A stretch of 64,000 nucleotides of DNA from Methanobacteriota archaeon (GTDB taxonomy: Archaea > Thermoplasmatota > Thermoplasmata > UBA10834). The notes under the pieces were generated by a model. It worked only from the letters and a program-made list of their open reading frames with translations. It was not told the DNA's origin and ran no database searches. The stretch's first letter is position 1. Each line of letters opens with the position of its first letter. Both the position numbers and the translations under genes were made by a program. The stretch lies in assembly GCA_020347645.1 (NCBI GenBank), contig CP070736.1:6451-70450 (forward strand), read 5' to 3'. Of this stretch, positions 11,624 to 13,043 are shown in pieces.

Positions 11624-11872
11624 GTGGTTCTTCTGCCCTTCAGGATCAAGGTCAAGAACGCGGAGACGGGCGCGACCGTGGAAATGGAGCTTGAGCAAAA
11701 CAACACTGTCGATGAAGTGATAGAGAGTGCCGCAACCTTCTGGAACAAAGAGATGGGAACCTACGTTGTGAGAAAGGGCAAGAAGGTGCTGAGGGGTACT
11801 CAGGCGCTGTCCGATGCCGGTGTGAGGGAGGACGACATGCTCGAGCTAGTTCCAGACCCAGAGGGGGGATAG
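11624..11872 (+). CDS. Ubiquitin-like beta-grasp protein with C-terminal diglycine
   Basis: About 80 aa. Ub-like pattern RIKVK..TG.TVEMEL...TVDEV, GKKVL, LSDAGV, LELV, ending PDPEGG-stop. Lies between E1 and E2. Start is GTG 11624 or possibly CTG 11633. Confidence 0.9.
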   Translation: MVLLPFRIKVKNAETGATVEMELEQNNTVDEVIESAATFWNKEMGTYVVRKGKKVLRGTQALSDAGVREDDMLELVPDPEGG

Positions 11873-12406
11873 TTGACTGCCGCCCTTCCTCTTGACATTC
11901 TGAGAATCCGGCTCAAGAACGAAGTGGAGACTTGTCGACGAGAGCTCTCTCATCACATATCGGTCTCTGACAACTCGCTGACTTCATTCCCCGTTCTGAT
12001 TGGGGTTACCTTTCTGCGTGTTCCAGGGCCATCGTGGGAGGATGGAAGAATCGTGCACAGGTACGCCCATGGAATGAGCTTGTTGATTACGCAGGAATAC
12101 CCAGCAGAAACACCAATAGTCAAATGGCGAACCCCGATCTTCCACCCTAATATAATGCCGCCTGAGGATGGCGGATACGTGTGTACAAAACTTCTTGAGA
12201 ATTGGGGGTTCAACTCGACGCTGCTGTCGTTCATAAGAGGAGTGGAGTGGCTCTTGATAAACCCGAACCCAGCCAACCCATTCGGCAACGACACATGCAC
12301 GCGTGCGGCTGCATATTTCAACAAGAGAGGGTACAAGCCTCCTTCGACTATCGAAAGGGACGTTGGCAGGATAAGGATAATCGGTGAGGCCCGTGACTCG
12401 GCCTAG
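11873..12406 (+). CDS. Ubiquitin-conjugating enzyme E2 (UBC fold)
   Basis: EYP..TP....TPIFHPNI, catalytic Cys104 (VCTKLL), conserved Trp, LLINPNPANP. TTG start directly abuts the Ubl stop. Confidence 0.93.
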   Translation: MTAALPLDILRIRLKNEVETCRRELSHHISVSDNSLTSFPVLIGVTFLRVPGPSWEDGRIVHRYAHGMSLLITQEYPAETPIVKWRTPIFHPNIMPPEDGGYVCTKLLENWGFNSTLLSFIRGVEWLLINPNPANPFGNDTCTRAAAYFNKRGYKPPSTIERDVGRIRIIGEARDSA

Positions 12407-13043
12407 AATCGTCGGAGAGACGAAAAGGCCAGTTCTTGAGCTACGGCCACCTTCTGCTACCAGACCGCACGAATGGTTGTCCGAAGACGCAGAGAGACGC
12501 TATAATGAGATCTGCACAACTGGAAGAGTCTTTGATATCTACTTTTCGTCCGTCGCAGAGAACAAGATACGGGAGCAGGCAGCAGGGGCGGCACCGATGA
12601 GACATGAAGTCATGGGGTTGTTGCTGGGCGAGGTCCGAATTTGGAAAAGCGAGATATACACTGTGGTAAGGGGTGTCAGTACGACAGACCTGAGAAGCTC
12701 ATCCGCAAATGTGAAGTTCGACCCCGAGGCTCTACCGAGACTATTCATCGATCTAGACTCTGCAAGATTCGATTATGTTGTAGTCGGCTGGTACCACTCG
12801 CATCCTGGGCACACGTGCTTCATGTCCAGGACCGATCTGAATACACAGCGATCCATATTCACTCAACCCTACCATTTTGCCCTGGTGATAGATCCGATCA
12901 ACATGGAAATCGAGGCGTTTAAAACCAGGGGAAATGGTTACGTCAGCGTTCCCTTCGCGATCGTGGATGGCGCGACTCTGAGGACGAGAAGGCTGAAGGC
13001 AGCGGACAGCCCAGCAGAACGCCAGATCGACGCTACGACTTGA
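12384..13043 (+). CDS. JAB/MPN+ (JAMM) metalloprotease, Rpn11/CSN5-like deubiquitinase
   Basis: EVMGLLLG and VVGWYHSHPGHTCFMSRTD (HxHx7Sx2D), TQ, ALVIDP. Confidence 0.93.
   Translation: MRPVTRPRIVGETKRPVLELRPPSATRPHEWLSEDAERRYNEICTTGRVFDIYFSSVAENKIREQAAGAAPMRHEVMGLLLGEVRIWKSEIYTVVRGVSTTDLRSSSANVKFDPEALPRLFIDLDSARFDYVVVGWYHSHPGHTCFMSRTDLNTQRSIFTQPYHFALVIDPINMEIEAFKTRGNGYVSVPFAIVDGATLRTRRLKAADSPAERQIDATT

Follow-up and report, generated by a model that had tools for sequence, protein, structure and literature searches.

The window (the whole 64,000-nucleotide stretch of DNA analyzed here) carries on its + strand a cassette of four genes, in which the gene for an E1-like activating enzyme is followed by those for a ubiquitin-like modifier (Ubl), an E2 conjugating enzyme, and a JAB metalloprotease (Table 1). 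When compared by sequence with the PDB, all four products are closest to proteins of the eukaryotic ubiquitin system. The E1 gives a match to the Pfam family ThiF (7e-42) that spans residues 22-259 of its 262, and its closest solved relatives are the adenylation domains of SAE2, UBA3, and UBA1 (5e-18), with MoeB behind at 1.5e-13; its length and the extent of the ThiF match indicate that it has no domain with which to recruit an E2. The genome, whose assembly is estimated to be 65% complete and has 9000 masked bases, contains a single UQ_con gene and a single JAB gene, as well as a second, more canonical ThiF gene elsewhere that is available for sulfur chemistry, so that the E1 of the cassette appears to be dedicated to conjugation. 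The Ubl has a weak match to the Pfam ubiquitin family (8e-4), its PDB matches are ubiquitin chains, and its secondary structure in the AF2 model follows the β-grasp pattern; its tail, of the form [ILV]PDP[EQT]GG in every cassette examined, is very unlike the LRLRGG of ubiquitin, and the last basic residue (Lys or Arg) of the Ubl is Arg68. The JAB protein (Pfam JAB, 4e-11) has as its closest solved relatives Rpn11 (1.4e-13) and the "N11-like protein" entries 6fjv and 6fju, which we take to be the Caldiarchaeum enzyme.

Table 1. Positions of the cassette genes, their motifs, and other features discussed in the text (window positions unless another sequence is named)
Feature	Position	Strand	Basis or remark
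MttB-family gene, 485 aa	8067-9524		trimethylamine methyltransferase-like
E1-like activating enzyme, 262 aa	10781-11569	+	Pfam ThiF, PDB relatives; adenylation domain only, lacking a C-terminal ubiquitin-fold domain
Ubl modifier, 82 aa	11624-11872	+	weak Pfam ubiquitin match, PDB ubiquitin matches, AF2; ends ...VPDPEGG, then stop
Ubl tail PDPEGG	11852-11869
E2, UBC-fold conjugating enzyme, 177 aa	11873-12406	+	TTG start, ORF reading, Pfam, PDB, AF2, Foldseek
E2 HPN motif (His91-Pro92-Asn93)	12143-12151	+	sequence reading; invariant in 31-homologue alignment
E2 active-site loop I94-V103 (IMPPEDGGYV)	12152-12181	+	UBE2A alignment, homologue alignment, tree; 3 residues beyond canonical
E2 loop segment PPEDGG	12158-12175
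E2 catalytic Cys104	12182-12184	+	aligned with the catalytic Cys of UBE2A; invariant in 31-homologue alignment
E2 Cys142	12296-12298
E2 disordered C-terminal tail, residues 155-177	12335-12403	+	AF2, end of Pfam match; in place of UBC helix α4
E2 tail motif RIRIIG	12368-12385	+	near C terminus; general form [RK]-x-[RK]-[IV]-[IVL]-(G), conserved in 14 or more families of the class
Rpn11-like JAB/MPN+ metalloprotease	12384-13043	+	start probably GTG 12393 (MTRPRIVGE...); overlaps end of E2 gene
JAB N-terminal motif RPRIVGE	12399-12419	+	conservation across families; like E2 tail motif
Protein without Pfam match, 376 aa	13107-14237		directly downstream of JAB gene
1510-aa protein, source genome	G000:C1:399376-403908 (L150 577-5109)		long helical/coiled-coil repeats, CARDB-like domain, C-terminal RING-like finger
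623-aa protein, source genome	G000:C1:165104-166975 (L151 1105-2976)		RING-like finger, then zinc ribbon, C-terminal DUF835
Ubl-E2-like fusion, family f16, 228 aa	L037 3746-4432	+
Giant RING-like homologue, family f16	L152 614-4999	-
RING-like protein of G070, family f6, 206 aa	L124 1234-1854	+

The locus has features of the archaeal eukaryote-like ubiquitylation operons (Caldiarchaeum/Asgard type), namely a gene for a GG-ended Ubl, clustered E1 and E2 genes, and an Rpn11-like JAB gene nearby, and the order E1-Ubl-E2-JAB recurs in most of the approximately 130 loci examined, which come from many families. Two loci from two families (L026 and L027) have their genes in the order Ubl-E2-JAB-E1, with the JAB domain forming the first part of a much longer ORF (890 and 637 aa from stop to stop), some cassettes of family f6 have no JAB gene, and in family f16 an E2-like gene stands alone as a fusion. 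Close relatives also share the flanks of the cassette, with genes for MttB and an M29-like peptidase upstream and genes for a SIS protein and AP-endonuclease-2 downstream, followed by ribosomal protein genes. The MttB-family gene, syntenic upstream of the cassette in relatives (L001), has no internal stop and is thus a non-pyrrolysine member. The 376-aa protein encoded directly after the JAB gene has, as judged by eye, what is probably a signal peptide and, toward the C terminus, a hydrophobic segment; since a gene of similar size occupies the same place at L001 and L002 but not at L003 and L004, it probably does not belong to the cassette.

Close homologues of the E2 number at least 219 in the protein database, and the source names given for them are all those of Thermoplasmata, Methanomassiliicoccales, or "Euryarchaeota" metagenome-assembled genomes. 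A scan of one genome per GTDB species for the pair of E2 motifs found at least 265 species genomes, and the 80 of these that are listed are all metagenome-assembled genomes of Thermoplasmata, Thermoplasmatota, or Methanomassiliicoccales; nearly all of the organisms are uncultured. The E2 occurs in 152 genomes of a class sample of 401 and in 42 of 45 genomes of its own family, and only rarely in more than one copy. McrA is encoded in genomes of family f6, which suggests that they belong to Methanomassiliicoccales-type methanogens. The single copy, the conserved gene order and flanks, and the lack of any PADLOC match for the E2 or the Ubl all fit a vertically inherited cellular system as opposed to a mobile defence island.

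The loop and the tail of the E2

The TTG start codon of the E2 gene directly abuts the TAG stop codon of the Ubl gene. The product matches Pfam UQ_con (PF00179) with an E-value of 3.8e-12 and 46.4 bits (cut-off 27), has UBE2A/Rad6, Ubc9, UBE2E1, and Ubc12 as its best PDB relatives by sequence (E-values down to 3e-10), and falls into no named family of NCBIfam. An AF2 model built from 31 homologues has a pLDDT of 86 and a pTM of 0.81, and Foldseek aligns it with dozens of E2 structures at a probability of 1.0 and with TM-scores, normalized to the target, of 0.5-0.72; taken together, these matches place the protein in the UBC fold well beyond chance. The HPN motif is followed by the catalytic Cys in the expected G-x-[IV]-C context, here G101-Y-V-C104, and all of these residues are invariant. 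By sequence and predicted fold, then, this is a genuine, eukaryote-type ubiquitin-conjugating enzyme, and very probably a catalytically active one. A preliminary description, made from the letters of the DNA, had already called it a eukaryote-like UBC-fold E2 with its catalytic Cys at position 104, and both statements hold, the numbering with the TTG start; its comparison with the core of Ubc4/5 is right for the UBC core in general, but the best relatives named above reveal no special affinity to Ubc4/5. The SPA motif, the canonical contact for RING domains, is replaced by (D/G)-F-x-S in the alignment of 31 homologues. A second Cys, Cys142, at the start of helix 3 (D-x-C-T-R-A-A), is also invariant and probably has a structural role, given that the f16 proteins without a catalytic Cys still retain it.

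Read from the DNA, the spacing between Asn93 and Cys104 is 11 residues as opposed to the 8 of canonical E2s, and the HMMER alignment of the E2 with UBE2A (FHPNVYADGSIC) contains exactly 3 gap positions, all inside the loop, in agreement with the insertion of three residues that the preliminary description had proposed. The canonical N-[IV]-x3-G-x-[IV]-C thus becomes N-I-MPPEDG-G-Y-V-C, with the extra residues in the middle of the loop. Among the 31 homologues, with identities down to 53%, F90, H91, P92, N93, I94, M95, D99, G100, G101, Y102, and C104 are invariant, and FHPNIM..DGGY.C is the most conserved stretch of the protein. In a profile search of 1.8 billion representatives, in which the Asn-to-Cys spacing was counted among the 150 best matches, spacings of 11 (n = 30), 8 (n = 33), 9 (n = 24), and 10 (n = 11) prevailed, and spacings of 7 or 12 (n = 4) and of 13-18 (n = 15) were also present; the strongest matches all combine the motif HPNIxxPxxGGxVC with a spacing of 11. 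A maximum-likelihood tree of 109 E2 domains, the phylogeny for which the preliminary description had called, gathers the spacing-11 E2s in one well-supported clade: the E2 of the window falls within a group of 27 rows (support 99/93), 24 of which have a spacing of 11, the other three being two sequences with still longer loops and one odd sequence from a short contig. In the region of the tree with the archaeal-type E2s, spacings range from 8 to 18, and in the other region they are mostly 8.

On the evidence of these alignments and the tree, the insertion is an ancient, fixed hallmark of one Thermoplasmata E2 clade and is not peculiar to the gene in the window. By itself it is a modest feature, because the loop length of archaeal E2s ranges from 8 to 18 residues. 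A core catalytic or docking role accounts for the invariance of the loop across families better than the selection of substrates does: the loop probably shapes the cleft for the proline-rich, acidic tail of the Ubl at the thioester, touches the minimal E1, or serves both purposes, and a substrate-selecting function appears less likely. The Ubl tail is as invariant as the loop. The PPEDGG of the loop resembles the PDPEGG of the Ubl tail in having prolines, acidic residues, and a GG pair, a likeness that for six residues could be due to chance or could hint at mimicry or a shared binding site.

At the C terminus, the helices of the AF2 model comprise residues 7-24, 106-109, 117-129, and 140-152, there being none after residue 152; residues 161-177 have a pLDDT below 50, and the UQ_con match stops at profile position 124 of 140. 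Both the model and the end of the Pfam match therefore indicate that the four-helix UBC core is incomplete through the absence of α4, so that the extended C-terminal tail mentioned in the preliminary description is indeed there and disordered but replaces the last helix of the UBC domain and is not appended to a complete one. The tail motif is missing from family f8, from f16, and from the JAB-less cassettes of f6 (L033, L131, and L132). At the N terminus of the JAB protein, the pattern M-x-(R)-P-[RK]-[IV]-[IV]-x-E is conserved even more widely than the tail motif, and [RK]-[IV]-[IVL] is found at its extreme N terminus in all of the examined families that have a JAB gene. RIRIIG of the E2 and RPRIVGE of the JAB protein are of the same basic-hydrophobic kind, and their coding sequences are about 30 nt apart. 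The occurrence of one motif in both proteins suggests a docking peptide for a shared partner, and it is reasonable to read the tail motif as a candidate for such a peptide.

A continuous Ubl-E2 chain, in which the TAG was read as Gly, was folded by AF2 from a 26-row paired alignment and gave a pTM of 0.58 with a tail pLDDT below 50; docking of the tail on the Ubl is unsupported by this fold, which is a weak test because it comprised neither coordinates nor inter-domain errors. Programmed read-through from Ubl into E2 was dropped as an explanation of the abutting codons, since the in-frame TAG-TTG junction is present at 33 of the approximately 130 loci, roughly the rate expected by chance.

RING-like proteins outside the cassette

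None of the approximately 130 cassettes examined contains a gene for a RING, U-box, or similar protein. The strict C3HC4/C3H2C3 RING pattern has no match in all six frames of the genome, and the Pfam models RING_2 and U-box give nothing above cut-off in the genome or in 45 genomes of the family. Below the threshold, RING_2 matches that extend over the whole model are present in 45 of 45 relatives and in 0 of 14 control genomes. These are C4HC3 fingers of the form C-x2-C-x12-C-x-C-x4-H-x2-C-x6-C-x2-C, the arrangement described for prokaryotic RING domains in a review (PMC11354881), and the best Pfam match of the finger is Prok-RING_1 (PF14446), at 26.1 bits against a cut-off of 29.1. The candidate partner domains resemble prokaryotic RING finger family 1 in their C4HC3 pattern but differ from it in scoring below threshold and in being attached to a 1510-aa coiled-coil protein or a membrane protein with a DUF835 domain.

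Two such domains are encoded in the source genome, both outside the window (Table 1). The 1510-aa protein has full-length homologues across the class and is a candidate E3 or scaffold. The N-terminal part of the 623-aa protein contains, as judged by eye, a probable signal peptide and membrane-like hydrophobic stretches. Relatives also have RING-like proteins of a third class, about 350 aa long and bearing several zinc ribbons (L121); none of this class was found in the source assembly. The profile of the finger is present in 261 of the 401 class genomes, and its cross-tabulation with the E2 gives 152 genomes with both, 0 with the E2 and no finger, 109 with the finger and no E2, and 140 with neither, it being noted that these genomes are relatives and not independent samples. 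Where both features are patchy they vary together: in family f6 the E2 and the finger occur together in 29 genomes and are both missing from 19, and in family f30 these numbers are one and four. In five high-quality genomes of the finger-bearing families f25, f14, f20, and f10, no match to UQ_con was found, and this, with the 109 genomes that have the finger without the E2, means that the link between finger and E2 is not an exclusive one.

Family f16 offers a further association, although one weakened by the loss of the catalytic Cys there. Its 228-aa fusion consists of a Ubl that lacks the GG end and an E2-like domain in which the HPN motif and the 11-residue loop are kept but Tyr replaces the catalytic Cys (GGRVY instead of GGYVC), making it UEV-like; there is no E1 or JAB gene near it. 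In at least five genomes from four genera, the divergent neighbor of the fusion gene, about 200 bp away, is a gene for a giant RING-like protein that is homologous with the 1510-aa protein of the source genome (E = 3e-91). The McrA-bearing genome G070 of family f6 has as its only RING-like protein one of 206 aa with extra zinc ribbons and one hydrophobic, probably membrane-spanning segment; its gene lies just upstream of a 109-aa ORF, possibly for an RNase P Pop5-like subunit, and of a gene whose product resembles the proteasome α subunit, as judged from its N-terminal sequence only.

Relation to known conjugation systems

The E2 of the window is an archaeal eukaryote-like E2, and as such of a known kind, with three features specific to its clade: a longer, invariant loop, the loss of α4, and a tail motif like that of the JAB protein. 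It has the UBC fold, the HPN motif, the G-x-[IV]-C context, and the NPxxP loop after helix 2 in common with canonical E2s (UBE2A/Rad6, UBE2D, Ubc9, and Ubc12), from which it differs in having an Asn-to-Cys spacing of 11 instead of 8 and neither an SPA motif nor helix α4; its identity to them is 20-27%, with TM-scores normalized to the target of about 0.5-0.7.

In Caldiarchaeum subterraneum, an operon for Ub, an E1-like protein, an E2-like protein, a small RING finger protein, and Rpn11 is known, and its cascade has been reconstituted in vitro (PMC5654768). The Thermoplasmata cassette is similar in encoding an archaeal cascade of eukaryote type, with a UBC-fold E2 that has the HPN loop and catalytic Cys and with an adjoining Rpn11-like JAB, but it includes no RING gene, its E1 lacks the C-terminal Ubl/UFD domain, and its E2 has the three-residue loop insertion and no last helix. 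Moreover, the Ubl is encoded in its mature form, ending at GG, whereas Caldiarchaeum Ub carries a 9-residue propeptide, and K155 is the last Lys in the tail of the E2, while the Caldiarchaeum E2 ubiquitylates itself on a C-terminal Lys (PMC5654768). A "Ca. Thermoplasmatota E2" branch lies deep in the archaeal E2/UEV tree of a preprint (bioRxiv 10.1101/2023.07.25.550441), and is most likely the same family as the E2 of the window; in the accessible part of that preprint the family appears only as a branch of the tree, and the loop, tail, operon, and partners are not described. Among the papers covered by a literature search, none describes this loop, the cassette, or its partners.

Proposed mechanism and alternatives

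The reading that best accommodates these observations, to which we assign a probability of about three in four, is that the protein is very probably an active E2 in a vertically inherited cassette of the housekeeping type, with the loop as a fixed hallmark and the tail as a docking peptide. The Ubl would be made with its GG end already exposed, and the minimal E1 would adenylate it and hold it as a thioester. Transfer to Cys104 of the E2 would follow, in an active site that is supported by Asn93 of the HPN motif. The E2 would then pass the Ubl to lysines of target proteins, and the JAB protease would take it off again. The loop would line one side of the active-site cleft as an adaptation to the PDPEGG tail of the Ubl, to an E1 without a UFD, or to both, and the tail would dock on a partner that also binds the N terminus of the JAB protein. 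The choice of targets would be made through C4HC3 RING-like proteins encoded elsewhere in the genome, which most likely take part in this step and are plausible partners of the E2. The roles of the loop and the tail are ones that we infer from conservation only.

The preliminary description had instead suggested that the loop and the tail may let the E2 select its substrates by itself, and had named Ubc9, on consensus sites, as an E2 that works without an E3; Ube2W would be another model for such an enzyme. The absence of RING, U-box, or other E3 genes from the cassettes, of RING_2 and U-box matches above the Pfam cut-off in the genome and 45 relatives, and of the SPA motif on which RING domains usually dock all accord with that idea, and there are precedents in Ube2W, where a disordered C-terminal region near the active site recognizes substrates, and in the "acidic loop" E2s Ube2R and Ube2G, where an active-site insertion sets specificity (PMC4822130). 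The E2 of the window has a disordered C-terminal tail, as Ube2W does, and an insertion close to its active site, as Ube2R/G do, but in Ube2R/G the insertion follows the catalytic Cys and here it precedes it. Moreover, substrate-selecting elements usually vary and the loop is invariant across families, the tail motif is found in the JAB protein as well and is missing in some families that have E1, Ubl, and E2, and all 152 of the sampled genomes with the E2 also encode C4HC3 RING-like domains. The assumption that an E3 is lacking is therefore a shaky one, the more so as the source genome itself has two such domains, the finger and the E2 co-occur exactly in f6, and in f16 the gene of the giant RING-like protein neighbors that of the Ubl-E2-like fusion. 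Selection of substrates by loop and tail independently of an E3 is thus somewhat weakened by the analysis; it is not the best-supported reading, and we regard it as unlikely. A proposal that partly overlaps the preferred reading is that the loop and the tail dock the E2 onto a minimal, homodimeric E1 that lacks a ubiquitin-fold domain and that the JAB N terminus competes for the same site. An E1 with no recruiting domain and a conserved short peptide in a disordered region are what this would call for, but f8 and the JAB-less f6 cassettes keep both E1 and E2 and have no tail motif, and we regard this form of docking as less likely than not.

Two other explanations carry far less weight. The set of E1, E2, Ubl, and JAB resembles the Bil operons (PMC10557695), and the E1 gives weak matches to PADLOC models of the Cap2-type E1-E2, which would suggest antiviral conjugation as in bacterial Bil or CBASS-Cap2 systems. 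This reading was set aside as very improbable, since PADLOC has nothing for the E2 or the Ubl and only generic matches for the E1 and the JAB protein, the E2 is of the eukaryotic UBC type according to Pfam, and the cassette is single-copy, shares its flanks with close relatives, and in several families is found in nearly all genomes. That the E2 might be a non-catalytic, UEV-like variant is brought to mind by the related f16 group, in which the catalytic Cys is gone and a Ubl forms part of the same protein, but the HPN motif and Cys104 are invariant in the clade and the gene adjoins those of an E1 and of a Ubl whose GG end is free, so that such a variant is hardly credible here.

To our knowledge, archaeal ubiquitin cascades of eukaryote type have been reconstituted only for Caldiarchaeum and Asgard. 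The reconstitution of the Asgard cascade is reported in a 2023 preprint. The present cassette adds a third large archaeal lineage with a eukaryote-type ubiquitin system, extending over at least 265 species genomes labelled as Thermoplasmata or by related names, and its layout is a stripped-down one: the E1 is minimal, the Ubl is encoded in mature form, the operon has no RING gene, and the active-site loop of the E2 is altered and fixed. A more far-reaching view, which we hold only tentatively and consider rather improbable, is that Thermoplasmata, probably with methanogens of the Methanomassiliicoccales kind among them, have a cascade that recruits its E2 without a UFD through the tail peptide shared with the JAB protein and has as its E3 the RING-like coiled-coil protein of approximately 1500 aa. 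Since the f6 genomes with the cassette bear McrA, cultivable or enrichable methanogens may be within reach, provided that these are relatives of Methanomassiliicoccales. Should the tail and loop take the place of UFD-based recruitment, or should the giant RING-like protein serve as the E3, the cassette would reveal the wiring of a minimal ubiquitin system; and if both an E3 of about 1500 aa and recruitment by a tail peptide hold true, the cassette would reveal a new logic of E2 docking and the first euryarchaeal E3.
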